Source: a virus
Taxonomy: Duplodnaviria; Caudoviricetes
DNA length: 53,138 bases
Reading direction: 5' to 3' (one strand)
IMG/VR virus record: IMGVR_UViG_3300036792_000197
Span: 1-53,138 of that record
The notes under the pieces were generated by a model, which was not told where the DNA came from, made no database searches, and saw nothing but the letters and a program-made list of their open reading frames with translations. Made by a program: the position numbers and the translations under genes. Shown here in pieces: positions 2,628 through 46,929 of this stretch (position 1 is the stretch's first letter; every line of letters starts with the position of its first letter).

Positions 2628-2960
2628 GTGGCTGATTCGGGCGCGCTGCGGGTGCGCCGGGCCCGCGCTCACGCGGCCGGCGATCACTCGCTGTGCAAGC
2701 GCTGCGCGGCTGTTCGCGTTGACGCGCCGCCACGCCTGACGGCCCTCCCGCCGGTGCCGCGTGACGCGAGCGCGGCCGAGGTTGACGCGGCGCTTGAGAT
2801 GCGCCGGCTGGCCCTCCGCCTGGTGACCGCGCACGAGAGCGAGCCGGCGAACACGCTCCTGGCGCGCGAGCTGCGGATGACGCTCGCCGAGCTGATGCCG
2901 AAGGGCAAGCAGGACGCTGATGCCGACCTCACGGGGCTCTTCAGCGCTTTGCAAGCCTAG
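2628..2960 (+). CDS. terS: Terminase small subunit
   Basis: GGAGGG RBS; RRARAHAAGDHSLC N-terminus and ARELRMTLAEL helix; position before terL. Confidence 0.7.
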   Translation: MADSGALRVRRARAHAAGDHSLCKRCAAVRVDAPPRLTALPPVPRDASAAEVDAALEMRRLALRLVTAHESEPANTLLARELRMTLAELMPKGKQDADADLTGLFSALQA

Positions 2961-3858
2961 GTTCGCGACCCCGGCGACGCCCGGGCGGGCGAACCTGGCG
3001 GACGGCATCGCGAAGACGGCGCAGGTGCTGAACTTCCGCACGCCGCTGGGCCCGGGCCTGATGCCGTGGCAGCACGAGATGAACCAGGTCGCGACGGAGC
3101 TGGACAGCCGCGGGCGGCTTGTCTACCGCCAGGTGGTCATCGAGGTGATGCGGCAGCAGGGCAAGTCGGTTGACCTGCTGTCGATGATGATCGCGCGGGG
3201 TTTGCGGCGGCCGGGGACGCAGATCTCGTACACGGCGCAGACGCGGCTGGACGCGCGGCACCGGATGATCGACGTGTGGTGGCCGCGTATCCAGGGCTCG
3301 AAGCTGGCGCGGTTCATTGACATCCGCAAGGGGTCGGGCTCGGAGGCGCTGGTGTTCGCGAACGGGTCGATGCTGGGCCTGGTGAGCAACACGCAGACCT
3401 CCGGTCACGGTGACAACCTGGACCTGGGCGTGATCGACGAGGCGTGGGCGCAGCATGATGATCACCTGGAGCAGGCGATGCGCCCGGCGATGATGACGCG
3501 GGACGCGCAGCTGTGGGTGGTGTCGGCGGCGGGTGACGAGCGGTCTGAGTACTTCCGCCGGAAGGTGGAGGACGGCCGGAGCCGCGCGCAGATGGGCGTG
3601 ACGGAGGGCGGCTGCTACGTCGGCTACTCGGCGCCGGATGACGCGGAGCCGGGGGACCCGGCGACGTGGCGGGCGTGCATGCCGGCGCTGGGGATCACGG
3701 TGACCGAGGAGACGGTGGCGACGGACTTCGGGCTGATGGAGCTCAGCGAGTTCCGCCGAGCGTACTTGTGCCAGTGGCCGGAGGTCGCGAAGCCGGGCTG
3801 GGGCGTGATCGGCCAGGACGCGTGGGGCGCGGCGGCCGCGCCGAGCGGGCTGCTGTGA
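2920..3858 (+). CDS. terL: Terminase large subunit, ATPase domain gene
   Basis: LMPWQ, Walker A RQQGKS, Walker B LGVIDEAW, VSAAG motif III, FRRAYLCQW. Confidence 0.9.
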   Translation: MPTSRGSSALCKPRFATPATPGRANLADGIAKTAQVLNFRTPLGPGLMPWQHEMNQVATELDSRGRLVYRQVVIEVMRQQGKSVDLLSMMIARGLRRPGTQISYTAQTRLDARHRMIDVWWPRIQGSKLARFIDIRKGSGSEALVFANGSMLGLVSNTQTSGHGDNLDLGVIDEAWAQHDDHLEQAMRPAMMTRDAQLWVVSAAGDERSEYFRRKVEDGRSRAQMGVTEGGCYVGYSAPDDAEPGDPATWRACMPALGITVTEETVATDFGLMELSEFRRAYLCQWPEVAKPGWGVIGQDAWGAAAAPSGLL

Positions 3859-4374: not shown

Positions 4375-4635
4375 ATGCCAACACCGGAAAACGATCCTGC
4401 GGTAGGCGATCCGGTTATCCTGCGTGGCCGTATCAAGGCCATCGACAGTGGCGTCGCGCTTGTCGAGGTGTACCGGACGTACCCGGTCGGCGGCACCGTC
4501 GCAGTCCAGTGCGGAGCGCTGGAACTCAACGAGACGCCAGATGGCCCGGACGAAGCCGAGGCTTCCGACGAGGACCGTATCCGCGAGGCGATGAACGAGG
4601 CGCAGGAGCACCCTGGCCGGACCGTGACGAGGTAA
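4375..4635 (+). CDS. Hypothetical protein
   Basis: GGGAGG RBS; ATG 4375. Confidence 0.65.
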   Translation: MPTPENDPAVGDPVILRGRIKAIDSGVALVEVYRTYPVGGTVAVQCGALELNETPDGPDEAEASDEDRIREAMNEAQEHPGRTVTR

Positions 4636-4638
4636 GCC

Positions 4639-4854
4639 GTGCGCCTGTCCGTAATCCTGCTTGTCGTCGCCCTGGCGGGCGTCCTCGGCGGTGGCGCCCT
4701 GATTGGCCTGCCTGCGCTGGGCGGGTGCCTGATCTTCGACTCGCTGGCGGTGGGCGTGTGGGCTTTGTGGCGTGATGACGGGTCGCGGGCGGTGCCGGGC
4801 GTGCACGAGGTGCCGACGCTGGCGCAGGTGCTTGAGAGGGCCCGCGCGTCGTGA
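4639..4854 (+). CDS. Small two-TM membrane protein between terL and portal
   Basis: Hydrophobic hairpin; common position in actinophages. Confidence 0.7.
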   Translation: MRLSVILLVVALAGVLGGGALIGLPALGGCLIFDSLAVGVWALWRDDGSRAVPGVHEVPTLAQVLERARAS

Positions 4855-5186
4855 GCATCCCGCTGCGCATCGTCGACCGGCCGCCTGCGGGCGAGCCTGA
4901 GCCGGGCATGATGTGGCGCTACCCGGACGGCGACGAGGGCGGCCGCGAGTGCTGGTGGGTCGTGCTGCCGAATACCAAGCCGCAGGGGCCCGGCTATGCC
5001 TCGGAAATCACCTGGCGCACGACTGACCGGGCATCCTCGCCGCCTCACGAGATGTGGCAGGTGAGCGGCACGCCCCCGCTGATCACGGTCACTCCGTCGA
5101 TCGACGTCGAGTGCTGGCTGCCGGACGGCATCCGTGACGGCTCGTACTGGCACGGGTTCATCACCAACGGTGAGCTGGTCGGCTGA
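4851..5186 (+). CDS. DUF6527-like protein
   Basis: WQVSGTPPLITVTPSI...WHGFITNG C-terminal signature. Confidence 0.55.
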   Translation: MSIPLRIVDRPPAGEPEPGMMWRYPDGDEGGRECWWVVLPNTKPQGPGYASEITWRTTDRASSPPHEMWQVSGTPPLITVTPSIDVECWLPDGIRDGSYWHGFITNGELVG

Positions 5187-6625: not shown

Positions 6626-7223
6626 CGGATGGGCGGCCCGGTGGGCTGGCGCGTGGGCAGGCGGCGCGCAGAGGTTCAACCACAGCCACGCCCCGGCAGG
6701 GTCACCGACGGGCGGCCAGTTCAGCACCAGCGGCGGCGGCAGCAGCTCGTCCGGGAGCGGCAGCGCCAAGGGCGGCGGCAAGGCCGCGGCGAGGCCGCTG
6801 GACGCGCACCAGAAGCACATGGCGCACCTCGCCCGCGTGCGGAACGTGGCCGCCCACCCGGCCTCGGCCACGGCGGCTGACCGGGCGCACGCGAAGGCCG
6901 CGCTGCTCACCCAGGCCAGAGCCGACCGGCTGAAGATCACGGCCCTGCAGGCGCAGCTGAAAAGCCTGACAGCCCAGGAAGCCAAGGCCGTCGCAACCGC
7001 CAAGCACACGGCAGCGAAGGCGGCGACCGCGAAAGCCGGGCCGAACCTGAAGAAATCCGTCGCGCACGCCGCGGCGGCCAAGAAGCCGGCAACGGCCAAG
7101 AAGACGACGACGACGACGGCTAAGAAGCAGACGCTGAAGCAGCAGATCGCCGCCGTGGAGGCGCAGATCGCCAACCTGACAGCGCAGGCGAAATCGGACG
7201 AGGCCGCGGCGGCGAAACTGTGA
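6618..7223 (+). CDS. Lys/Ala-rich putative internal head protein
   Basis: FNHSHAPAGSPTGGQF motif followed by a basic Ala/Lys-rich coiled region; between portal and protease. Confidence 0.65.
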   Translation: MTDGWAARWAGAWAGGAQRFNHSHAPAGSPTGGQFSTSGGGSSSSGSGSAKGGGKAAARPLDAHQKHMAHLARVRNVAAHPASATAADRAHAKAALLTQARADRLKITALQAQLKSLTAQEAKAVATAKHTAAKAATAKAGPNLKKSVAHAAAAKKPATAKKTTTTTAKKQTLKQQIAAVEAQIANLTAQAKSDEAAAAKL

Positions 7224-7279
7224 CCGGCGACCACCTCGAGCAGCACGCAGCCACGGAAAAGCACGCAGGAAGGGCAGCG

Positions 7280-8296
7280 ATGGCCGACACGAAGGCACCC
7301 GCCAGGCCTTACGGCGACGTGAAGTACGCCGACCCGAAGAACGGCAAGTACCCCATCGACACCGCGGAGCACGCCCGGGCGGCCTGGTCGTACATTAACC
7401 AGCAGAAGAACGCTGGCGAGTACCCGATGAACGGCGTCACCCTGTCCGAGGTGAAGGACGCGATCATGTCGGCGTGCAAGAAGTTCGGCATCGACGTGTC
7501 CAACGACAGCGGCCGCGCCGCCGCGCCGCCGGAGATCGTCCGCTGGTACGCGCTGGAGGACATGCACATCGTGACCCGCGGCGAAGGTGACGGCAGCGGC
7601 CGCGTCGTCGAGGCGTTCGCCGCCGTGTTTGACCAGCCGGCCGAGATCAAGGACTTCGAGGGCCACTACCTGGAGACCATCGACCGCACCGCGTTCAATA
7701 AGCGGCTGGCGGACCTCGAGCGGTCCAGGGGCGGCTTCGCGTCGGTGAAGGTGCTCTACAACCACGGGATGACCTTGCAGGGCACCCCGTCGGAGCGGTT
7801 CTCCATGCCGGTCGGCACGCCGCTGCGCGACGGCGGCATCGTGGCCACCGACCGCGGGCTGCTGACCCGCACCGAGTACAACCGGACGCCGCTGGCCGAG
7901 GAGGTACTGGAGCTGATCCGCTCCGGCTCGGTCACCTCCCAGTCGTTCACCGGCCGGATCGTCCGCTCTGACCCGCAGCTCGGCCGCGGCCGGCAGCACC
8001 GCCCCGCCGGCGGGGAGCTGCCGCACGTGCGCCGCACCGAGCTGGGCCTGCGCGAGTACGGGACTGTCGTGTGGCCCGCGTACGAGGGCGCCGAGATCTT
8101 CGGCGTCCGCATGTCCACTCCCGGTACCTGGGAGCCGGAACAGGTTGACGAGGCACTTCCGCCGGATGCAGAAGCCGCCGCCGGTGAGCCGCCCGCGCCC
8201 CTCGAGGGCGACGAGCACTCGGCCCGGTATCACCAGCACGCGCTCTACGCGCTCCGCTCTAAGGAGCTGCGCGAGAAGCACGGGCTGGCCTGGTAA
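7280..8296 (+). CDS. HK97-type prohead protease with N-terminal DUF6582-like domain
   Basis: PYGDVKYADP..KYPIDTAEHARAAWSYI N-domain; EAFAAVFD, VLYNHG, SQSFTG, EYGTVVWPAYEGA protease motifs. Confidence 0.88.
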   Translation: MADTKAPARPYGDVKYADPKNGKYPIDTAEHARAAWSYINQQKNAGEYPMNGVTLSEVKDAIMSACKKFGIDVSNDSGRAAAPPEIVRWYALEDMHIVTRGEGDGSGRVVEAFAAVFDQPAEIKDFEGHYLETIDRTAFNKRLADLERSRGGFASVKVLYNHGMTLQGTPSERFSMPVGTPLRDGGIVATDRGLLTRTEYNRTPLAEEVLELIRSGSVTSQSFTGRIVRSDPQLGRGRQHRPAGGELPHVRRTELGLREYGTVVWPAYEGAEIFGVRMSTPGTWEPEQVDEALPPDAEAAAGEPPAPLEGDEHSARYHQHALYALRSKELREKHGLAW

Positions 8297-8319: not shown

Positions 8320-9726
8320 ATGGCCACGCTGAAGGAAAAGTCCGAGGAGATGGCCCGCATCAAGGCCGAGCTCCAGCGGATGGAGACCTCCGAGGAGACC
8401 ACCGAGGAGAACGACGGCGACCTGCGCGACACCCTCATCGAGCGGTGGAAGCAGCTCGACGAGGAAACCAAGCCGATCATCGCGCGGATGGAGCAGATCC
8501 GCGCCATTACCCGCTCGTCGGCCGACCCGGCGAACCTTGAAGGCCCGGACGGCGGCAGCTCCGGGGGCTACTACGGCGGCGGCTCCCCGGATCTCGTGAT
8601 CCGCACGAACCGCAGCCCGTACGAGGACCTTGACGCGGTCAGGTCCAGGGTCGTGACCCGCGCCGACCTGCGCGCCCGGGCCCTGGACGCGGTGGAGCTG
8701 GAGGCCAGGCGCGGGAACCTGTCCCACGACTACGCCGAGGCCGCCACGGTCAAGGTGCAGGACAACCCGGGGATCGCCCGGCACCTGCTGCTGACCGGGT
8801 CGGAGGAGTACCAGGAGGCGTTCCGCGCCTACGTCGAGGACCCGCAGGGCATGGCCCAGCGCGCCGCGCTGTCGCTGACCCTGGCGAACGGCGGCTACCT
8901 GCTGCCGTTCGTACTCGACCCGACGATCGTGCTCACGAACACGGGCAGCGCGAACCCGTGGCGGCGCATCTCCAACGTGAAGCAGACCACGTCCAACACG
9001 TGGAACGGCGTCACGTCGGCGGGCGTCAACGCGGCCTGGCTCGCTGAGGGCACCGCCTCAACCGACGGCACCCCGACCGTCGGAAACATCCAGATCACGC
9101 CGGCGAAGGCCGCCGCCTGGGTGTTCGGCTCCTACGAAGTCCTCGAGGACACCGACTTCGGCCAGCAGCTCCCCATGCTGCTCGCCGACGCCAGGGACCG
9201 CCTGGAGGAGAACGCGTTCGCGATCGGCGCCGGCACCGGCGGCGTGCCGCAGGGCGTCATCACCGGCGCGACCACCGTCGTCACCACGGCGACCACCACC
9301 GTCGTCGCGGTCGGCGACGTGTACGGGCTCCAGGGCGCGCTGCCGCCCCGGTTCCGCAACGCGCCGGGCGCGGCCTGGGCGGCGAACGTGTCGATCATCA
9401 ACACGTTCCGGCAGCTCGACACCGCCGGCGGCGCGTCGTTCTGGACGAACCTCGGCAAGGGCGCCCCGGAGACACTGCTCGGCGCCCCGATCTACGAGTC
9501 CTCGTCGATGTCGGGCGCCAAGACGTCCGGGTCCCTTATGGCCGTTTTCGGCGATTTTGGGCAGTTCTACGTGATCGATCGCGTGGGAGTCAGCCTTATC
9601 TATGAGCCTTTGGTCAAGGACCAGTCCACGGCCCTACCGTCAGGGCAAGCTGGCTGGTTCATGTTCTGGCGCGTGGGCTCAAAAGTGGCCGTACCCAACG
9701 CATTTCGGGTCATGAAGGGCCTGTAA
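8320..9726 (+). CDS. Major capsid protein (HK97 fold, N-terminal delta domain)
   Basis: Coiled N-terminus; GGYLLP, GxGTGGVPQG, TLLGAPIYES, VFGDFGQFY, R.G..V..PNAF. Confidence 0.95.
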   Translation: MATLKEKSEEMARIKAELQRMETSEETTEENDGDLRDTLIERWKQLDEETKPIIARMEQIRAITRSSADPANLEGPDGGSSGGYYGGGSPDLVIRTNRSPYEDLDAVRSRVVTRADLRARALDAVELEARRGNLSHDYAEAATVKVQDNPGIARHLLLTGSEEYQEAFRAYVEDPQGMAQRAALSLTLANGGYLLPFVLDPTIVLTNTGSANPWRRISNVKQTTSNTWNGVTSAGVNAAWLAEGTASTDGTPTVGNIQITPAKAAAWVFGSYEVLEDTDFGQQLPMLLADARDRLEENAFAIGAGTGGVPQGVITGATTVVTTATTTVVAVGDVYGLQGALPPRFRNAPGAAWAANVSIINTFRQLDTAGGASFWTNLGKGAPETLLGAPIYESSSMSGAKTSGSLMAVFGDFGQFYVIDRVGVSLIYEPLVKDQSTALPSGQAGWFMFWRVGSKVAVPNAFRVMKGL

Positions 9727-9735
9727 AACCTGATA

Positions 9736-9779
9736 GCATCCTTTCTGGCGGACAGGAAATCTGCCGCCAGAAAGGATGC
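9736..9779 (+). promoter_or_regulatory. 16-bp perfect inverted repeat covering the RBS of the downstream HNH gene
   Basis: GCATCCTTTCTGGCGG / CCGCCAGAAAGGATGC; AGAAAGGA lies in the 3' arm, GTG at 9783. Confidence 0.8.
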
Positions 9780-9782
9780 CCA

Positions 9783-10319
9783 GTGAGACTGCAAGATCAG
9801 AAGTGCCTGGACTGCGACAAGCCGGTCGGCCCGAAGGGCAGCAAGGGCCGCTGCCTAGGCTGCAATCAGCGTCTTCGCCGTGCGGCAACCAAGGCGGCAC
9901 GGAAGCCCTGTACGCGACCTGGCTGTACCAGGTTCATCACGGCACCCAGCTCTCCGGTGTGCGACATGCACCGCAACCGCATGCGCCGCACCGGCGAGTA
10001 CGGGCCAGCGGACCAGCTCATCGCAACCGACGGCGAAGGGTCCATCGACCAGCACGGCTACCGCGTGCTCCGCTTCGGCGGCTACCCGAACCGCACAGAC
10101 ATCTACGAGCACCGCCTCGTGATGGAACAGCATCTCGGCCGTCCGCTGGAGGACTGGGAGCATGTCCACCACAAGAACGGCATGCGCGCGGACAACCGGC
10201 TTGAGAACCTCGAACTGTGGGCTCAGTGGCACCGTCAGCCGTTCGGCCAGCGCGTCGCTGACCTCGTGGCGTTCGTCGTGGGTCACTACCCGGATGAGGT
10301 CCGGGAGGCCCTGTCGTGA
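9783..10319 (+). CDS. Free-standing HNH homing-type endonuclease with N-terminal Zn fingers
   Basis: GYR..., YEHRLVME.HLGRPL...EHVHHKNGMRADNRLENLEL; CxxC and CxxxxC...CxxH. Confidence 0.9.
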   Translation: MRLQDQKCLDCDKPVGPKGSKGRCLGCNQRLRRAATKAARKPCTRPGCTRFITAPSSPVCDMHRNRMRRTGEYGPADQLIATDGEGSIDQHGYRVLRFGGYPNRTDIYEHRLVMEQHLGRPLEDWEHVHHKNGMRADNRLENLELWAQWHRQPFGQRVADLVAFVVGHYPDEVREALS

Positions 10320-16038: not shown

Positions 16039-17082
16039 ATGCGCTGGCTGGTGATTCACCCGGGCCCCGGGTTCAGTGTGCACGACGTCTACGTCGGCTG
16101 GGTTGAGGCGCTGCGGGCGCTCGGCGAGGACGTGCTGGAGTACAACCTGGGCGACCGGCTGACGGCGTATGACGTGGCGCTGGTCGAGACCGGGAACGTG
16201 GATGCCGCCGGCCATCCCGAAGTGCGGAAGCTGTTTACCCGCGAGCAGGCGATACACCTGGCGGCCGACCGGATCTTCGCCGACTGCATGAAGTGGTGGC
16301 CGCACGTGGTCCTCGGCGTGTCCGCGTTCTTCATCCCGCCGTGGTACCTGGACGTGCTGCAAGACCGGGGAATGAAGACGGTCCTGCTGCACACCGAGTC
16401 GCCGTACCAGGACGACGAGCAGCTGAAGCGGGCGGCGCACGCCAACCTGAACCTGCTCAACGACCCGCAGAACATCGCCGCTTACCGCGACCTCGGCCCG
16501 GCCGAGTACGTGCCGCACGCCTGGCGGCCATCCGTTCATCATCCCGGCCCCGCGCTGCCTGAGCTGAAGTCGGACTTCGCGTTCGTCGGCACCGGCTTCA
16601 AGTCGCGGGTGGAGTTCTTCGAGCGGATGGACTTCTCCGGCCTGGACGTGCTGCTAGCCGGGACGTGGCCCGACCTCGCCGAGGACTCGCCGCTGCGCAA
16701 GCACATGCCGGGCGGCGAGGTGGTGCAGTGCACCGACAACGAGGAAACCGCGGCGATTTACCGCAGCTCGAAAGCCGGAATTAACTTCTACAGGCGCGAG
16801 TCTGAGCCGGGCCACGCGGGCGAGGGCTGGGCAATCGGCCCGCGCGAGATCGAGATGGCGGCTACTCAGCTGTTCTTCTTGAGGGACAAGCGCCCCGAAG
16901 GCGACGAGCTGTTCCCGATGCTGCCGACCTTCGACGGCCCGGAAGACGCGGGCGAAAAGCTCCGCTGGTGGCTGGCGCACGACAGCCAGCGGGAGAAGGC
17001 TGCCGCCGCGGCGAGGGCCGCCGTGGCTGACAGGACGTTCGAAAACCACGCGCGGCGGCTACTTCAGCTGCTCGACAAGTAA
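16039..17082 (+). CDS. GT-B fold glycosyltransferase (CgeB / Glyco_trans_1_2-like)
   Basis: HTESPYQD, YVPHAW.P..H.P, DFAFVGT, IYRSSKAGINFYR, GPREIEMAA, RTFENHARRLL. Confidence 0.85.
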   Translation: MRWLVIHPGPGFSVHDVYVGWVEALRALGEDVLEYNLGDRLTAYDVALVETGNVDAAGHPEVRKLFTREQAIHLAADRIFADCMKWWPHVVLGVSAFFIPPWYLDVLQDRGMKTVLLHTESPYQDDEQLKRAAHANLNLLNDPQNIAAYRDLGPAEYVPHAWRPSVHHPGPALPELKSDFAFVGTGFKSRVEFFERMDFSGLDVLLAGTWPDLAEDSPLRKHMPGGEVVQCTDNEETAAIYRSSKAGINFYRRESEPGHAGEGWAIGPREIEMAATQLFFLRDKRPEGDELFPMLPTFDGPEDAGEKLRWWLAHDSQREKAAAAARAAVADRTFENHARRLLQLLDK

Positions 17083-17094
17083 GGGAGTGACCGC

Positions 17095-17514
17095 ATGCCA
17101 TCACAGAGAGAACACGGCCGGCAGGGCGTCGTATACCTCGGCATCACCCAGTCCGCCGGGGTGTCCGCCGTCGCGACGCCGGTCACGTTCCTGACCGACT
17201 GGACGATGAACAAGACCACCGCCAAGGTCGACGTCACCGCGTTCGGCGACACCAACCTGACGTACGTCGCGGGCCTGCCCGACGCGTCGGGCGATTTCAG
17301 CGGCTGGTATGACTTCTTCACGCCGCAGACCTACACCGCGGCGGGCGACGGAATTCCGCGGAATTTCTATTTGTACCCAAATTCGCTGAATGCTAGCGAC
17401 TATTTTTACGGCCAGATTCTTCCTGATTTTAGCGCGGCGGGCGGCGTAAGCGCCGCGGTGTCACTCAAGTGCACCTGGAATGCGGCGGGGCCGATCAACC
17501 GCGCAGGCATGTAA
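17095..17514 (+). CDS. Major tail (tube) protein
   Basis: HGRQGVVY, W...VDVTAFGDTN.TYVAGLPDASG.FSGWYD, FYLYPN, YFYG. Confidence 0.85.
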   Translation: MPSQREHGRQGVVYLGITQSAGVSAVATPVTFLTDWTMNKTTAKVDVTAFGDTNLTYVAGLPDASGDFSGWYDFFTPQTYTAAGDGIPRNFYLYPNSLNASDYFYGQILPDFSAAGGVSAAVSLKCTWNAAGPINRAGM

Positions 17515-18184
17515 TTCGGCCGTCATTGGCTGAATTCACGAGGTATTCAATCGCGGTCTGAAGAACGGCGATATCGTCGCGGGCGTAGCCGAGCATGGGG
17601 TTGCAGCGGTCGCAGAGCAGTCCGCGTACGGTGCCCGTGGCGTGGTCGTGGTCGACGTTCATCGCGCGCTTGCCGTTGCGGTTCTTGCAGATGGCGCATA
17701 CGCCGCCCTGGGCGTCGAGCATCGCCAGGAACTCGTCGTGAGTGATGCCGTACTCGCGTTCGTACTTCCGGCGGACTATCTGTGCGTTCTCGCGCTGGGG
17801 CCCCTCAGAGCAGTGCTTTTCGCAGTATTTGTGTCCGCGTCCGCGCAGTTTCGGCTCGCCGCATTCCGGCATCTGGCAGGTATTCTTGCCACTGAGGCAG
17901 CGGGTGCAGGTCAGTTTGGTGCTGTGAAAAGTATGACCGCAGACAATGCACGGCCGGTCGGTTGCCTTGCACTCGTAGCATTCAATGTCGAGCCCGCGAA
18001 ATGTCTTACCGCAGGTCGGGCACTCGCGCTCAGTGGTGCGGCAGGGAGTACACCGGAGGCTGCTGTGATGACGGAACGAGCATCCGCAGTCCTTGCAGGT
18101 GCGATCGGTAGTGCGGCAGGCAGAACACGCGCCCGGGTTGCCGCGGAAGGTGCGCCCGCACTGGGTGCACGTAGTCTGATCCAT
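17495..18184 (-). CDS. Free-standing endonuclease VII-family (His-Me) nuclease with tandem Zn-ribbon repeats
   Basis: YGIT..EF..ML..QGGVCAIC, VDHDHATG.VRGLLC..CN..LG; GAGAGG RBS before ATG 18184. Confidence 0.9.
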   Translation of the reverse strand: MDQTTCTQCGRTFRGNPGACSACRTTDRTCKDCGCSFRHHSSLRCTPCRTTERECPTCGKTFRGLDIECYECKATDRPCIVCGHTFHSTKLTCTRCLSGKNTCQMPECGEPKLRGRGHKYCEKHCSEGPQRENAQIVRRKYEREYGITHDEFLAMLDAQGGVCAICKNRNGKRAMNVDHDHATGTVRGLLCDRCNPMLGYARDDIAVLQTAIEYLVNSANDGRITCLRG

Positions 18185-18252
18185 GTCGGACCTCTCGCAT
18201 AGGTTCGGCCACGCCCCGGGCCTGTTCACAGCAGGCGCCGGGGTCTCGCATG
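18185..18252 (-). promoter_or_regulatory. Structured 5' leader (two hairpins) of the endo VII gene
   Basis: CCCCGGCGCCTG-CTGTGAA-CAGGCCCGGGG, then CCGAACCT...AGGTCCG overlapping the RBS. Confidence 0.6.
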
Positions 18253-18278
18253 TCAGTTTACTGGTGAGAGGTGACGTT

Positions 18279-18779
18279 TTGCCTGGTGTCGACGACCTCG
18301 CGTTCGACCTCAACGCCATCGCCGTGCGGCTGCGTGAGCTCGGCGAGACGGGCCTGGTGAGCGAGCTGCAGCGGGAGATCGGCGCCGCGGTAGCGCCGCT
18401 GCCCGCGCGGATCCGCGCGGGCCTGCCCGCTTACCTGCCCAACCGGTACGCCGACGTGCTCGACGCGGACCTGAGCGTCAGCCGCTACACGTTCCTCGGC
18501 GGCGCCGGCGGGGAGGCGCGCGTCAGCGTCTACGCCAGCGCGCGGGTGAAGAAGCGGAAGCTGCGGCAGTCCGACGCCGGGTTCCTGTGGCATCCGCTGT
18601 TCGGCCGGTTCCCGCGCAGCAGCCCCCGGAACCGCTGGTTCGTGAACGAGGCGCCGGGCGAAGGGATGGAGCGGGGCTGGTTCAGCCGGCCCGTGGAGGA
18701 TTCCGTGCCGCAGGTCCGCGACGCGGTGGAGCGGGCGCTGGACAACGTGGTGGAGAAGGCAGTCGGGAAAGGGCTCTGA
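18279..18779 (+). CDS. HK97 gp10-like neck/tail-completion protein
   Basis: GAGAGG RBS + TTG; LRELG...HPLFG...W...GWFSRPV..SVPQVR.AV. Confidence 0.7.
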   Translation: MPGVDDLAFDLNAIAVRLRELGETGLVSELQREIGAAVAPLPARIRAGLPAYLPNRYADVLDADLSVSRYTFLGGAGGEARVSVYASARVKKRKLRQSDAGFLWHPLFGRFPRSSPRNRWFVNEAPGEGMERGWFSRPVEDSVPQVRDAVERALDNVVEKAVGKGL

Positions 18780-25044: not shown

Positions 25045-28000
25045 GTGGGCGTAATCCGCACCGAGGCCGGCGGCTCGCTGCTGACCGAGGCCGGCGGCGA
25101 CCTGCTCACCGAGGCGACGGGCGGCAGCGCGACCGGCTCGGGCGGCGTGGCGGCCAAGAAGGCCACGCTGGCCGGCAGTGCCACCGGCGGCGGCAGCAGC
25201 GGGTCCGGCGGCCTCGCCGTCAAGAAGGCGGTTCCCGGCGGCAGCGGCACAGCGGCCAGCCTCCCGGGCGCGACCCACTTCCCGTACCACAAGCTCGGCC
25301 TCAAGGTCGAGCTGCTGCTTAACACGACGTGGACCGACGTCACCGCCTACCTCAGGGCCGCCGACCCGGTCACGATCTCGCCGTTCGGCCGGACCAACGA
25401 GTCGTCGAGCATGCAGGCCGCGCAGCTGGCCCTCACGCTCGACAACCGCAGCGGCCGGTTCACCCCGGGCAACGCCAGTGGCGCGTACTACCCGTACGTG
25501 CAGCTGAACACCCGCATCCGCGTCTCGGTCAATGACACCTCCGTCAACAACACGGGCTACAGCGGCTACCGCTTCTGGGGCGAGGTATCCTCCTGGCCCG
25601 CTACCTGGGACGAAAGCGGCCGGGACGTCTACGCCCAGGTCACCGCCTCAGGCATCTGGCGGCGGCTGAGCCAGTCGACGAAGACGCTCGGCTCGCCGTA
25701 CACCCGCTACAACAACATCTCGGTGCGGAACGCCTGGACGCTGGCGTCGTACTGGCCGATGGAAGACGGCCAGAACTCAAAGACCCTGGCTAACCTGGTG
25801 GCCGGGCAGGCGGCGATGACCGTCGTCACCACCCAGCAGCCCAACCTGGCGTCCTGCACCGCCTTCCCCGGCAGCGACGCCATCCCGGTGCTGAACGCCG
25901 CGGAACTGTCCGGGGTCATCTCCACCAGCGCGCACCCGACCAACGTGCTGTGGCGGTTCACCTTGTTCGTGCCGTCAGGCGGCGACACCGGGGTCGCGGC
26001 CGGCCCGGTCGCCCGGATGCACACCTCCGGCACCGTGGCCTCGGTGGACGTCAAGCTCGGCCCGGCGGGCGGCGGCCCGATCACGATCACCGGTGCCAGC
26101 TCGGGCGGCACCACGCTGTTCACCGGGTCCAGCTCGCTGTCCACCTACGGGATCCCGCTGGAGGTCCAGGTCAGCCTCGCCCAGGTGGGCAGCAGCATCA
26201 CCTGGGGCCTGCGCACCATGCTGCCCGGCGGGACAGTCGCCAACAGCACGGTAACCGGCAGCATCAGCGGCACCGTATCGGATTCCACGTCGGTCATCTT
26301 CAGCCCCGGGGCGACGTGGAAGGGCACCGCGGCCGGGCAGAGCGTCGTGATCTACGGCAACCCGAACGTCGTCGACTCGGCGCAGGCGCTGGCCGGGTGG
26401 AGCGGCGAGTACGCCGGGGCGCGGTTCCAGCGGGTATGCGCCGAGCAGGGCATCGCCGCCACGCTGGTCGGCTCGTCGACCTCCGGCACGATGATGGGGC
26501 CGCAGGTCGACGACACGCTGGCGAACGTGCTGGGCATGATCGAGGCGACCGACGGCGGCATCCTGTTCGAGACGCGCACCCAGTTCGGCCTCGGCTACCG
26601 GACCCGGGCGTCACTGACCGACCAGTCATCGGCGCTCACGCTGAACTACGCCGCGCAGCAGCTGTTCACGTCGCTGCAGCCGGTCAACGACGACGCCCTT
26701 GTCCGCAACGACGTCACCCTCACCAACTACGACGGCTACGCGGTGCGCGTCTACCTGGCGGCCGGGGCGCGCAGCATTCAGGACTCCCCGAACGGGGTGG
26801 GCAGCGGCTACGAGGGCACACGCCAGGTGTCGGCCACCAGCCACGCGCAGGTCGACGCGCTGGGCGAGCAGCTGCTCGGCCTCGGCACCGTCGCCGACAA
26901 CCGCTACCCGACGGTCACCGTCAACCTGGCGCGCACGACGACAGCCAGCCTGTTCAGCGTGGTCCCGTCGGCGGGCGCCGGCGACTACCTGACGATCACG
27001 AACCTGCCGGCCTACGGCGGGGCGGCCACGCAGAAGCAGCTCATCTGGGGCTGGACTGAGACGATCACCCTGGAGGCACCCGGGTGGACGTTCACGTTCA
27101 ACACGATCCCTGAGGCGCCGTGGGAGTCCGGGTTCGTTCCCGGGACGACGATGACCGGGCAGGTTCCCGGGTCGCCGACGACGGCCGCGACGGCGAGCTC
27201 TGTCAGCGGCGGGCAGATCGCCGAGAGCGCGATCAGCCTGTTCAACCTGGCGCAGGAAGTGCTGACCTTCAACTTCGGCGGCATCACCAGCACGATCAGC
27301 AGCGCCGCGCCGCCGACTCCTACTGACGGCGCCCTGTGGTTCGACGTCAGCAACGGCTACCAGATCAAGCGCTGGGACGCTGTCAGCACCTCCTGGGTGC
27401 CGGTTGTCTTCGACGGCGCGAACATCCTCGGCGCCGGCACGATCACCGCCGGGCTGATCGCCGCGAACGCGGTCGTCGCCGCGAACATCGCCGCCGGGGC
27501 GGTCACCGCCACCCAGCTCGCCGCCGGGATCGTCAAGGCCGGCATCGTCGACGGCACCCTGATCAGCGGCGCCCAGTTCGTCGCCTACGGGACTACGGGC
27601 GAGATCCTGGTTTACTCGGGCGTCCCCGCATCAGGCAACCTCCTGATGTCAGTGTCGGCCGCCGCGGGCACCGACGCTCACGGCAACGGCTACCTCGGCC
27701 CGGGCGTGTACGTCTACAACTCCAGCGGCGGGTCGATCGGGCTGACTCCCGCGGCTAACACCGCGCTGCAGCTGACGCCCGGTGTCACCCCGGCGGTGGT
27801 GGCGGGCACGGCGCAGGTGTTCGCCAGCACCCCGGGCCACGTCATCGTGCAGGACGGCGGCGACGGCCAGACCTACCAGACGCAGCGGCGCACGCTCTTC
27901 AACCCCACCGCGTCAGGCACGCTGACGACGCTGTCCACGATTTTCACCTCGAGGCTGGGCGCCGGCACCTACCGGGTTCACGCGCAGCTGTACATCAATG

Positions 28001-38059: not shown

Positions 38060-38233
38060 GGTGCTCCTGAAGACGATGTGACTGGGGTGTACCCGGGTGC
38101 ACCCGGGAGCTGCGGAAAATCCCACAGGAGAACTATTGCAACAGGCAAGTAACGGGGAGTAGTTTAACGATTCCCGTATAAATCTGTGGGAATTTTCGGT
38201 AAAACCGTAGTTGGACCGTAGGGGGGGCTTGTA

Positions 38234-38545: not shown

Positions 38546-38906
38546 GCGGCTCCGAAAGGGCCCGGTCCATCGCTTCCTCGAGAGCGCTGGACCGGCCCCG
38601 CAGCACTTCGCGCATATGGTCCTTGAGCCGTTCGAGCTCTTCGGGAGTCGGCATCTCCGGCTCTTCTTCGGGCACTTCTGACGCGATGCGTTCCATCTCG
38701 CCCGACGGCCAGCGGAGCGCCTCTTCGATCTTGGCGCGCGTGACCGCGATCGGCCAGCGGTGCCTGATCTCCAGGTTGTAGACGGTCTTCGGGTCAATCT
38801 TCGCCGCGGCGGCTAGTTCTGCGCGGTCCATGCCCAGTCCGCCGCGCCTCGCGGCTACCGCGAGGGCGGCGCGCTTCCGGCCGTCCGCGCGGCTGTCTGC
38901 TGCCAT
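38481..38906 (-). CDS. Immunity repressor (XRE HTH)
   Basis: RRGGLGMDRAELAAAAKIDPKTVYNLE...KIEEALRWPSG; divergent from cro. Confidence 0.85.
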   Translation of the reverse strand: MAADSRADGRKRAALAVAARRGGLGMDRAELAAAAKIDPKTVYNLEIRHRWPIAVTRAKIEEALRWPSGEMERIASEVPEEEPEMPTPEELERLKDHMREVLRGRSSALEEAMDRALSEPPRRGAGDVAAVPEPRRDRRTS

Positions 38907-39055
38907 GCCAACAGTTTGCGGGAATGTTAGGGCAATGGCAACGTTGCATAAAGTTCCCCTATGTTGCCTACTGGGACAGATGGATACCCGATTGTTCCCT
39001 GAGAAGGGAACGTTTCGCTTGACAGCGTTCCCTAACGTTCCCTAAAGTTCCCGGT
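38907..39055. promoter_or_regulatory. Lysis/lysogeny switch: divergent promoters with GTTCCC operator repeats
   Basis: TTGACA (39019)-18 bp-TAAAGT (39043) before ATG 39056; GTTCCC/GGGAAC repeated, three copies at 10-bp period. Confidence 0.8.
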
Positions 39056-45133: not shown

Positions 45134-45385
45134 CTACTCGGCGGCGTACAGGTCGGGGTTGGCTGCCTTGTCCTCGCGGACGAGCTTGGCCGTGAAGTCG
45201 TAGGTATGGGCGTAGCCGATCGCCCGTGCGATGTCCGCGGGCTTATTGCCCTTCCGGCCGGCGGCGACGATGGCGGCCTTGAGCCGGTCCGGGCCGTTCA
45301 CGTAGTTGTCGGCAGCCTGCTCGAGCTGCGCGCGCGTCTCAGGGTCCACCTGCGGAAGTGTCTCACGATCAATGTCGGTGGTCAC
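45134..45385 (-). CDS. Small HTH-like regulator, antisense to the early operon
   Basis: AAIVAAGRKG.KPADIARAIG; TACAGT 6 nt before GTG 45385 suggests a leaderless start (alternative ATG 45403). Confidence 0.65.
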   Translation of the reverse strand: MTTDIDRETLPQVDPETRAQLEQAADNYVNGPDRLKAAIVAAGRKGNKPADIARAIGYAHTYDFTAKLVREDKAANPDLYAAE

Positions 45386-45510
45386 GATCCAACTGTACGA
45401 CATACCATCCTGGTCTGACACCTTGATCTGTGACAGTGTTTTGCGATAGTGATTAAGCGTCCAGAGAATGCACTCTGGGAACCATGTGACGTTTTGAGAG
45501 GCAGGCCGCA

Positions 45511-46083
45511 TTGGCTCGCAGCGGGCTACCCGGCTCGTACGACGGGACGCTCTACAGGTCCCACCTAGAGGCCAGGTGGGCGATATTTTTCAAGCACCTT
45601 GACGTCAAGGCCCGGTATGAGCCGCAGGGCTTCGACCTGGGCGACGGCATGCTGTACCTGCCCGACTTCGCCGTCTTCGCCGCGGGCGGCACGCTGTGGG
45701 CCGAGGTCAAGCCCGAGTGGGACGCCGACCCGGAAGGCGTCGAGAAGTGGCGGCGGTTCGCCGCGACCCGCCCGCAGCCATCACGCGCCGTGCTGCTGAT
45801 CGGGCCGCCGTCAGAAGACGGCGAGCACGTCGTCATCGGCGGCGACGACACCGCGGACGACCCGCTGAAGGGACCGTGGGAGGACAACGGCCAGGTCTGG
45901 CGCCCGTGCACCGACGGCCGTCACTTCGACCTGGCATGGCCAGGCAAGAGCTGGACCAAGTTCGCCGCCGACGACTGCCCGGACCACTTCGGCGCCGACG
46001 GGGTTGAACGGATCAAGGCCGCGGTCGAGGCCGCGCTGTCGCACAGGTTCGGCAAGTTCGGCCCGACGCCAGGGCAGACGTAA
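45511..46083 (+). CDS. PD-(D/E)XK nuclease-family protein
   Basis: YRSHLEARWAIFF..L...YEPQGF....YLPDF...WAEVK. Confidence 0.85.
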   Translation: MARSGLPGSYDGTLYRSHLEARWAIFFKHLDVKARYEPQGFDLGDGMLYLPDFAVFAAGGTLWAEVKPEWDADPEGVEKWRRFAATRPQPSRAVLLIGPPSEDGEHVVIGGDDTADDPLKGPWEDNGQVWRPCTDGRHFDLAWPGKSWTKFAADDCPDHFGADGVERIKAAVEAALSHRFGKFGPTPGQT

Positions 46084-46929
46084 ATGCGCCGCAGCGAGAT
46101 CTTCGTACCGCTGACGACCGACTTCCCGGACAACCGGAAGGTGCGGGCGCTCAGCCGCTACGGCCGCGACGCCCGCCCGGCGCGCGACCTCTACGTGCAG
46201 ATGCTGCTCTACTGCAAGCGCACCAAGTCCGACGGGTTCGTGCCAGAGGAGCAGCTCGGCCTGCTCGCCTACCCGGACCCGGTCAAGTACGGCCGCCGCG
46301 ACGCCGACCACCTGGCCGACGTGGGACTGATCGAGCGCGGCACCGGGGGATGGCTGCTGCCGGGCTGGCTCGAGCGCAACCCGTCACGCGCGTCGATCGA
46401 CGCCAAGTCGGAGGCCAAGTCCCGCGGGGCGCGGCACGCCAATCACAAGCGGTGGCACTCCGAGACGGCAGACCCGGACTGTGAATGGTGTCGGACTACT
46501 GATCAGACCAGTGATCAGATATCTGATCAGACCACTGATGATGTTCCGAACATCCACCGATCACAGTCCGAATCCACAGAGACAGAGACAGAGACAGAGA
46601 CAGAAGTAAAGACACTTGCCCGGCAAGCCGGGCGACCGCCAGAGCCCGGCTCCGACGACGACCCCGACTGGGTCGCGTTCTGGGACGCCTACCCGCGGAA
46701 AGTCTCCAAGGCCGAAGCCCGCAAAGCCTGGAAATCCGCCGTCGCCAAGCGCAAGGCCGACCCCGCGGCCATCATCGCGGCCGCGGCACGCTACGACGCC
46801 GACCGCACCCGGACCGACGAGTTCACCGCGTACCCGGCGACCTGGCTCAACGGCGACCGCTGGCACGACTACGGGCCGCGGACGACAGAAACCGCCGGCG
46901 CACGCCAGGCGTTCCCGTGGGAGAACTGA
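46084..46929 (+). CDS. Replication initiator (lambda O / DnaD-like C-terminus)
   Basis: N-terminal wHTH (YCK...SDG.VP), ETETET linker, FWDAYPRKV.K..A.KAW, YPATWLNG.RW.D. Confidence 0.85.
   Translation: MRRSEIFVPLTTDFPDNRKVRALSRYGRDARPARDLYVQMLLYCKRTKSDGFVPEEQLGLLAYPDPVKYGRRDADHLADVGLIERGTGGWLLPGWLERNPSRASIDAKSEAKSRGARHANHKRWHSETADPDCEWCRTTDQTSDQISDQTTDDVPNIHRSQSESTETETETETEVKTLARQAGRPPEPGSDDDPDWVAFWDAYPRKVSKAEARKAWKSAVAKRKADPAAIIAAAARYDADRTRTDEFTAYPATWLNGDRWHDYGPRTTETAGARQAFPWEN
46498..46604. repeat. Candidate replication origin inside the initiator gene
   Basis: TGATCAGA at 46500, 46512, 46524 (12-bp period), then an ACAGAG run at 46576-46604; locally AT-richer. Confidence 0.7.

Follow-up and report, generated by a model that had tools for sequence, protein, structure and literature searches.

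In the phage genome analysed here, a free-standing nuclease gene has been inserted after the gene for the major tail (tail tube) protein, ahead of the structural gene that follows, and the part of the tail-tube gene that faces it is written with synonymous A/T-ending codons, an arrangement that recurs in all eight of the loci found to carry a nuclease of this kind at the junction. With moderate confidence, we interpret the gene, from its sequence and that of its surroundings, as a homing endonuclease resembling F-CphI (DHHRN family), and the recoded tract linked to it as a probable means of self-immunity. The window, meaning the whole stretch of DNA that was analysed, is 53,138 bp long (positions 1-53,138 of IMGVR_UViG_3300036792_000197); it constitutes a complete viral record, carries direct terminal repeats and has a GC content of 70%.

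The closest relatives of this phage were viral contigs from soil metagenomes together with one contig of a Trebonia MAG; among cultured phages there was neither a DNA match to the locus nor a tblastn match to the tail-tube protein. Matches to the nuclease protein came from 1,626 phage records and were all below 60% identity, and this gene context was found in none of the 25 matches listed. A scan of genome contigs with the nuclease returned no relative. A total of 58 tail-tube loci (numbered with L) were gathered, their nuclease state was assigned by tblastn and Pfam, and 10 duplicates were removed for the tests. Three relatives were compared as genomes (G001, G002 and G003, which correspond to loci L020, L022 and L025, respectively), and contigs from two runs, X1 and X3, were also used. 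The tail-tube orthologues of L001-L005, L012 and L014 share 81-86% amino-acid identity with that of our phage.

The nuclease gene and its insertion after the tail-tube gene

The nuclease gene (17495..18184, minus strand) encodes 229 amino acids, starting from an ATG at 18184 that follows GAGAGG. Its product matches PF02945 (E 7e-26; 90.4 bits against a cut-off of 23.6), with the Endonuclease_7 domain of Pfam occupying residues 139-215, as well as phrog_2914, endonuclease VII (E 3e-34). The catalytic motif of the Endo VII (DHHRN) type is C-terminal (17537..17770, minus strand; 93.9 bits) and intact, comprising CxxC, DHDH, R and CxxC-N, and it aligns with residues 12-68 of T4 Endo VII (E 1e-4) and with Hpy99I (E 1e-5), the same residues being kept in both cases. 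In front of it, residues 6-125 (17810..18169, minus strand) hold four units of about 24 amino acids with the pattern CxxC-X10-11-CxxC and one CX4C...CX3C unit, as read from the translation, and these N-terminal units are presumed to be DNA-binding zinc ribbons.

A similar zinc-ribbon array with an HNH head (PF01844) occupies the same junction in L053 (1887-2708, minus strand). The tail tubes of L048 and L053 are 94% and 90% identical, whereas their nucleases share only 43% identity and differ in their catalytic domains, a contrast which suggests that catalytic heads may have been swapped. A Holliday-junction resolvase of the T4 gp49 type was also considered and rejected, given that the motif is C-terminal here and that the alignment with gp49 is confined to the residues mentioned above. 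The PF02945 match is absent from G002 and G003, meaning that the gene is dispensable, which argues against a core gene of the gp49 type. No methylase partner was seen adjoining the nuclease gene.

As the earlier note had observed, the nuclease gene converges on the tail-tube gene and overlaps its stop codon; it ends at 17495, with a coding overlap of 20 nt. Its location is intergenic, between the tail-tube stop and the start of the next gene, and involves neither an intron nor an intein. That next gene is a structural one (phrog_11991; 18279..18779, plus strand, with a TTG start at 18279), which in nuclease-less relatives directly follows the tail tube. Directly upstream of the tail tube, in a position kept in relatives, lies a glycosyltransferase-like gene (16039-17082; PF13524, E 5e-13), the product of which possibly glycosylates virion proteins.

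Since close relatives join the tail-tube stop straight to the next gene, the nuclease gene is an insertion. The nuclease is absent from the junction in L001-L005 and L014: the 18279-18779 homologue of L003 and L004 starts in overlap with the tail-tube stop, and in L014 the tail-tube TAG is followed by the ATG of the next gene with nothing between them. The flanks of the carrier L012 and of nuclease-less L014 are about 90-95% identical, and the downstream flank of L033, which has the nuclease, is 97% identical to that of L034, from which it is cleanly absent. Moreover, contigs from both X1 and X3 bridge 17513 to 18288, skipping 774 nt, so that the segment 17514..18287 is replaced by 10 nt in these nuclease-less variants. 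In run X1, for which 17388-17448 is uncovered among the contigs listed, the nuclease-less form had a depth of 13.9 and the nuclease contig one of 24.4. The nuclease-less form of X3 comes from a related phage, which shows 21 differences over 149 nt, and has C at 17403, 17406, 17427, 17430, 17448 and 17481, where the third positions of our phage are T or A. Presence and absence in relatives therefore bear out the view, implied in the earlier note, of a nuclease-gene insertion beside the tail tube.

Over the last 190 bp or so before the insertion, L012 and L014 are identical at 44-50/60 positions, down from 52-59/60, and just after it at 49/58. This drop is compatible with co-conversion, though gain and loss of the nuclease look alike in such a comparison.

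Synonymous A/T-ending codons and their link with the nuclease

The tail-tube gene (17095..17514, plus strand) consists of 139 codons, and its identity is confirmed by a match to phrog_10528 ('major tail protein', E 5e-9). Codons 86-112 (17350..17430, plus strand) form a dense patch in which 15 of 27 codons end in A or T, as compared with 2 of 63 in codons 23-85; both counts, first given in the earlier note, proved exact, and the conserved motifs that it placed inside the patch are indeed there (NFYLYPN, codons 90-96, and DYFYG, codons 102-106). With the amino acids of the patch and the codon usage of the phage, 2.3 A/T-ending codons would be expected (P(>=15) = 3e-10), the baseline being 30 confident genes with 11,146 codons, of which 9.8% overall have A or T in the third position (AT3). 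The 81 bp at 17351-17431 have a GC content of 0.395, the lowest of 53,058 windows of that size (genome mean 0.70, sd 0.055); the next-lowest (38116-38196) is intergenic and lies beside an integrase gene. A stop-to-stop ORF scan for windows rich in AT3 was contaminated by out-of-frame 5' extensions and was left unused for ranking patches. The patch is dense up to 17430, as had been claimed, but the A/T enrichment does not end there and continues more thinly to the stop codon, so the whole enriched tract extends from codon 86 to the stop (17350..17514, plus strand; 19 of 54 codons), a putative co-conversion and immunity tract.

The A/T-ending codons are synonymous replacements of the GC3 consensus. 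In nuclease-less relatives, 0-6 of the same 27 codons end in A or T, while in relatives with the nuclease the enrichment occupies the entire 3' end of the tail-tube gene, its 5' edge falling at Gly86 in both diverged tail-tube types, the diverged carriers L031, L033, L048, L049, L053 and L082 included. The candidate core of a recognition site is the block that encodes NFYLYP (17362..17379, plus strand), spelled AAT TTC TAT TTG TAC CCA in our phage; the codons AAC TTC TAC CTG TAC CCG are used at these positions by 28, 25, 27, 25, 29 and 19 of 31 nuclease-less sequences, respectively, and each of the 8/8 carriers has at least two changes in the block. In the patch, 14/27 codons either code for Ile or belong to a two-fold C/T pair, so that a silent change in them must give T. 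At four-fold sites in the tract, A/T rises from 9% to 40%, chiefly replacing G.

Pairs of loci show how the change is distributed along the gene. Between L012 and L014, the share of codons that differ synonymously rises from 19/85 in the 5' part to 27/54 in the 3' part, and the non-synonymous differences number 6/85 and 6/54, respectively; between L048 and L057, the synonymous differences are 23/80 in the 5' part and 32/60 in the 3' part.

A convergent zinc-ribbon nuclease directly after the tail tube was found in 8 loci of 58, with an Endo VII domain in our phage and in L012, L031, L033, L048, L049 and L082, and with the HNH (PF01844) domain in L053. The comparison of relatives with and without Endo VII that the earlier note had proposed came out in favour of a link: AT3 is at least 30% in 8/8 carriers and in 4/40 non-redundant non-carriers. 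From codon 86 on, the carriers have AT3 values of 35-50% (ranks 2, 3 and 5-10 of 58), and they differ from non-carriers with p-values of 1.3e-6 (Fisher) and 2.8e-5 (Mann-Whitney) in tests that ignore relatedness, whereas the 5' parts of the gene show no AT3 difference between carriers and the others (p = 0.38). When the nuclease state is mapped onto a tree built from the 5' part, it has to change 7 times, and well-supported branches account for at least 5 of these forced changes. Phylogenetically independent pairs gave three differences in the same direction, none in the opposite one and two ties, L033/L034 and L031/L054 (p = 0.25). The tract is thus linked to the nuclease gene, and the distribution of the nuclease is sporadic.

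The patch can also stand without the nuclease, which the earlier note had named as grounds for giving up the link: it does so in L034 (AT3 of 56%), L036 (43%) and L054 (31%). All three are sisters of carriers, and this fits loss of the nuclease. A part of the patch (6/27) is present in nuclease-less L003, and L075 is AT3-rich across the whole tail-tube gene. Separately, L028 has a second, diverged tail-tube paralogue (4574-5029, minus strand) upstream of its glycosyltransferase gene, with a GC3 of 0.95 and no patch.

Proposed mechanism and alternative explanations

In the mechanism that we propose, the zinc-ribbon array would aim the C-terminal beta-beta-alpha-metal nuclease, which would cut nuclease-less relatives during co-infection. 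The cut would fall within the nucleotide-invariant stretch that encodes DG(I/L)xRNFYLYP...LPDF, about 85-165 bp from the insertion point, and, with the carrier genome as the template for repair, the nuclease gene would be copied in along with whatever DNA separates it from the cut; being copied along in this way, the tract from codon 86 to the stop would travel and evolve with the nuclease. At a GC3 of about 90%, the codon-optimal spelling of a conserved peptide is nearly unique and could serve as the word that the nuclease recognises, in which case a carrier would stay uncut only by using non-optimal synonymous codons. The GC3 dip would then be the visible footprint of this recoding.

Several observations speak against such a mechanism. 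The A/T-rich tract is about 55 codons long, and the usual homing site is shorter than this. Nuclease-less L034, L036 and L054 bear the tract and L003 a part of it, and the independent-pair test reached only the p-value of 0.25 given above. Nuclease identity roughly follows tail-tube identity (55% against 64% and 51% between our phage and L033), so that much of the distribution could reflect old inheritance and losses rather than repeated homing. Finally, the gain of A/T at four-fold sites comes mainly from G, which fits a general drift from GC to AT as well as it does selection.

The main rival is pure hitchhiking with AT-biased mutation, which we consider unlikely. It holds that the tract is co-inherited with a selfish nuclease without conferring immunity, and that AT-biased mutations accumulate in it because drive and repeated break repair raise mutation or relax selection on codon usage, truly protective changes being, if there are any, few or located elsewhere. 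The shape of the enrichment agrees with this, as it fills everything between a fixed edge and the nuclease gene and is not limited to a site of 20-40 bp, and so do the A/T gains at two-fold and four-fold sites alike, which have no strand-specific signature, and the GC3 of the nuclease genes (0.74-0.82), which is lower than that of the phage genes (about 0.9). Simple accumulation fits less well with the fact that the tract has a higher AT3 (196/473, 41%) than the nuclease genes (18-26%), even though the tail tube is a major structural gene. It also leaves aside the changes, at least two per carrier, that fall in the 18-nt NFYLYP block, near-invariant in the 31 non-carriers, and there is no comparable dip on the insertion side toward the next gene. 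Strand-specific deamination was rejected as a source of the A/T-ending codons: its signature was not seen, and four-fold sites lose G rather than C.

Import of the nuclease together with the 3' end of the tail-tube gene from a relative with lower GC, the dip being the composition of the donor, appears to us improbable. The 5' edge at codon 86 is sharp, the GC of the nuclease region (0.57-0.67) is below that of the genome (0.70), and the 3' residues A100, C126 and M139 of our phage are common to L012 and L014 while its 5' part has residues of its own, all of which a mosaic origin would produce. Both tail-tube types, however, retain their own amino acids inside the tract, and hence no donor tract common to both was exchanged. 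L014 shows the 3' residues just named but not the A/T codons, and the sister alleles of L033 and L034, each of them rich in A/T3, have 21/61 codons that differ synonymously, which points to change in place. In addition, the 58 loci include no relative with lower GC except L075, in which the whole gene is AT3-rich.

It is very improbable that the tail-tube 3' end contains a cis-acting signal required by nuclease carriers alone, whether one that slows translation or acts as an RNA element, or a promoter, or else a terminator or 3' end serving the convergent transcript. Although the convergent nuclease transcript must end inside the tail-tube gene and one weak terminator-like hairpin is present (17383-17409, plus strand), this hairpin was rejected because it is not conserved in L012, terminator-like sites in 16900-18500 number 3 where 1.1 are expected, no Rfam match was obtained at E <= 1, the folding energy is no better than that of shuffled sequences on either strand (z = 0.04 and 0.01), and the positions of the A/T codons vary between lineages, unlike those of a fixed motif. 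An internal promoter, which the earlier note had set against its own reading, does not appear to explain the patch either, as 16900-18500 contains no sigma-70-like promoter, the only type covered.

Other patches and comparison with known systems

The earlier note had argued for a general rule and expected that GC3 dips would predict homing targets in high-GC phages. The first of these ideas holds in part: similar patches occur beside HNH_3, HNH and Endo VII genes at two other junctions, but the dips are unspecific. In a comparative scan of four genomes, which covered three nuclease Pfam families and used thresholds chosen after the finding had been seen, 6 patches emerged, 3 of which had a listed nuclease gene no more than 600 bp away (P = 0.003); without the tail-tube patch the proportion was 2/5 (P = 0.026), with 5.4% of comparable codons being that close. 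Dips are consequently enriched near nucleases, and with three of the six patches that close they are not specific enough to serve as the predictor that had been hoped for.

At the capsid 3' junction, an HNH_3 gene is present in our phage and in G003 and an Endo VII gene in G001, and the junction is empty in G002. In our phage, the HNH_3 gene (9783-10319) follows the major capsid gene (8320-9726), the 3' end of which (9523-9726) has 8-9 A/T-ending codons per 27; the corresponding values at the capsid 3' end are 8, 11 and 5 per 27 codons in the genomes with a nuclease (our phage, G003 and G001, respectively) as against 0-3 in G002. Where HNH_3 genes on the plus strand occupy the tail-tube junction (L038, L042/43 and L044), the patch lies in the last 20 codons or so, and in L074 the 5' part of the tail tube has 24/79 A/T3 codons, mostly within the first 35 or so. 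That the position of the patch follows the position of the nuclease, in the cases with HNH_3 downstream as in those with Endo VII upstream, is counted in favour of a link. Similarly, in G002 (L022) a PLD-like nuclease-fold gene stands beside a divergent HNH_3 gene (2641-3189 and 3176-3730) and has 16/27 A/T3 codons at its 5' end, within the first 60 codons or so; in its G003 orthologue (26408-26935) there is neither a patch nor, in the vicinity, a listed nuclease. The Endo VII genes located upstream of the tail tube are at 877-1278 in L074 and at 564-1139 in L068/L069.

A number of other patches and low-GC regions were recorded. In L045-L047 (tail tube at 1501-1920), the last 20 codons have a patch as in the HNH_3 carriers but are followed by a small membrane-protein gene, the nuclease having possibly been lost. 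Mid-capsid A/T3 patches occur in G003 (6998-7129, 13/27) and G001 (9715-9831, 9/27), approximately 0.9-1.2 kb from the nearest listed nuclease gene, and are absent from our phage and from G002; they may be the footprint of a lost element. In our phage, 10/27 codons at 8105-8185, near the 3' end of the pre-capsid gene (7220-8296), are A/T3 in comparison with G003, and no listed nuclease gene lies within 1.6 kb of them. Two intergenic regions of very low GC, 38116-38196 and 38890-38992, extend between the integrase gene and a helix-turn-helix-like gene and contain recurring words similar to GGAACGTTAGGGAAC; their appearance is that of regulatory or attachment regions. Low GC is also found in the N-terminal half of a small gene (45134-45511, minus strand) and in a low-complexity TDQ/TE-repeat linker (46476-46556, within the gene 46084-46929), both unrelated to any nuclease.

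A wider reading, which we put forward only tentatively and hold to be doubtful as it stands, is that in phages with extreme GC3 several nuclease families, namely HNH_3 and the zinc-ribbon arrays with either an Endo VII or an HNH head, compete at shared gene junctions for near-invariant GC3 words, the codon-optimal spellings of conserved peptide motifs, and that carriers must keep their A/T-ending codons while the nuclease is in place. If this were true, the codons would drift back only after loss of the nuclease, and maps of synonymous A/T3 would show both present targets and 'ghost' footprints of lost nucleases, candidates being L034, L036, L054, L045-47 and perhaps the mid-capsid patches of G001 and G003; the targets of nucleases could then be predicted without biochemistry. 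Our data suggest that A/T3 patches in high-GC phage genomes can flag nuclease targets and past occupancy. For the locus itself, the tract in 8/8 carriers offers a cheap and concrete hypothesis as to where the enzyme binds and how its carriers protect themselves, and should the mechanism fail, a clean example of a known phenomenon would still be left.

In intronless homing by SegF and SegG, an intergenic nuclease acts on a neighbouring conserved gene, with co-conversion of the flanks. Intronless homing by these two enzymes is cited in PMC2988022. A parallel for the carrier's protection is the HNH enzyme MobE of T4: polymorphisms at its nicking site, which adjoins a conserved peptide block, are held in PMC2790892 to be the likely protection of the carrier genome. 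As with MobE in that account, our nuclease gene is intergenic, its putative target is the neighbouring conserved gene of relatives that are without it, and co-conversion of the flank would accompany its transfer. It differs from MobE in nuclease family and in host group, and polymorphisms of the kind described here are dense enough to produce a compositional dip and recur in 8/8 diverged carriers.

In ICP1 phages, nuclease genes lie at recombination boundaries, as reported in the part of PMC10448857 that we could consult; there, as here, given junctions between conserved genes are occupied by varied nucleases in which DNA-binding and catalytic modules have been swapped. The words 'synonymous' and 'polymorphism' do not occur in that text, and the part consulted describes no codon-level footprint. 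By title and abstract, no description of a GC3 or synonymous footprint of phage homing endonucleases was found in the literature.

With T4 endonuclease VII (gp49) and Hpy99I the nuclease has its catalytic motif in common by sequence, but in gp49 the motif is N-terminal and here it is C-terminal, in a gene that is dispensable. The nearest characterised enzyme is F-CphI of cyanophage S-PM2, a homing endonuclease of the DHHRN family and, in the portion of PMC6083498 available, the only homing endonuclease with an Endo VII motif named as characterised. That text defines the F-CphI family by the DHHRN residue set and has the motif at the C-terminus in its endonuclease clade, and in our nuclease the residues are present and the motif is C-terminal behind another domain. 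Like F-CphI as described there, it is a free-standing phage nuclease with a C-terminal T4 Endo VII motif and a separate N-terminal part, and its gene adjoins a conserved gene. Unlike F-CphI, it has five zinc-ribbon units at its N-terminus and, as putative target, the tail tube of a high-GC soil phage; self-protection, which in the S-PM2 system described in that source is provided by an intron interrupting the site, would here be achieved by synonymous recoding. The locus adds zinc-ribbon-armed relatives with the Endo VII motif from high-GC soil phages, as well as one with an HNH head on the same arm. The homing endonuclease family is known and the mechanism has a precedent in MobE (PMC2790892); the recurrent compositional footprint is the new element.
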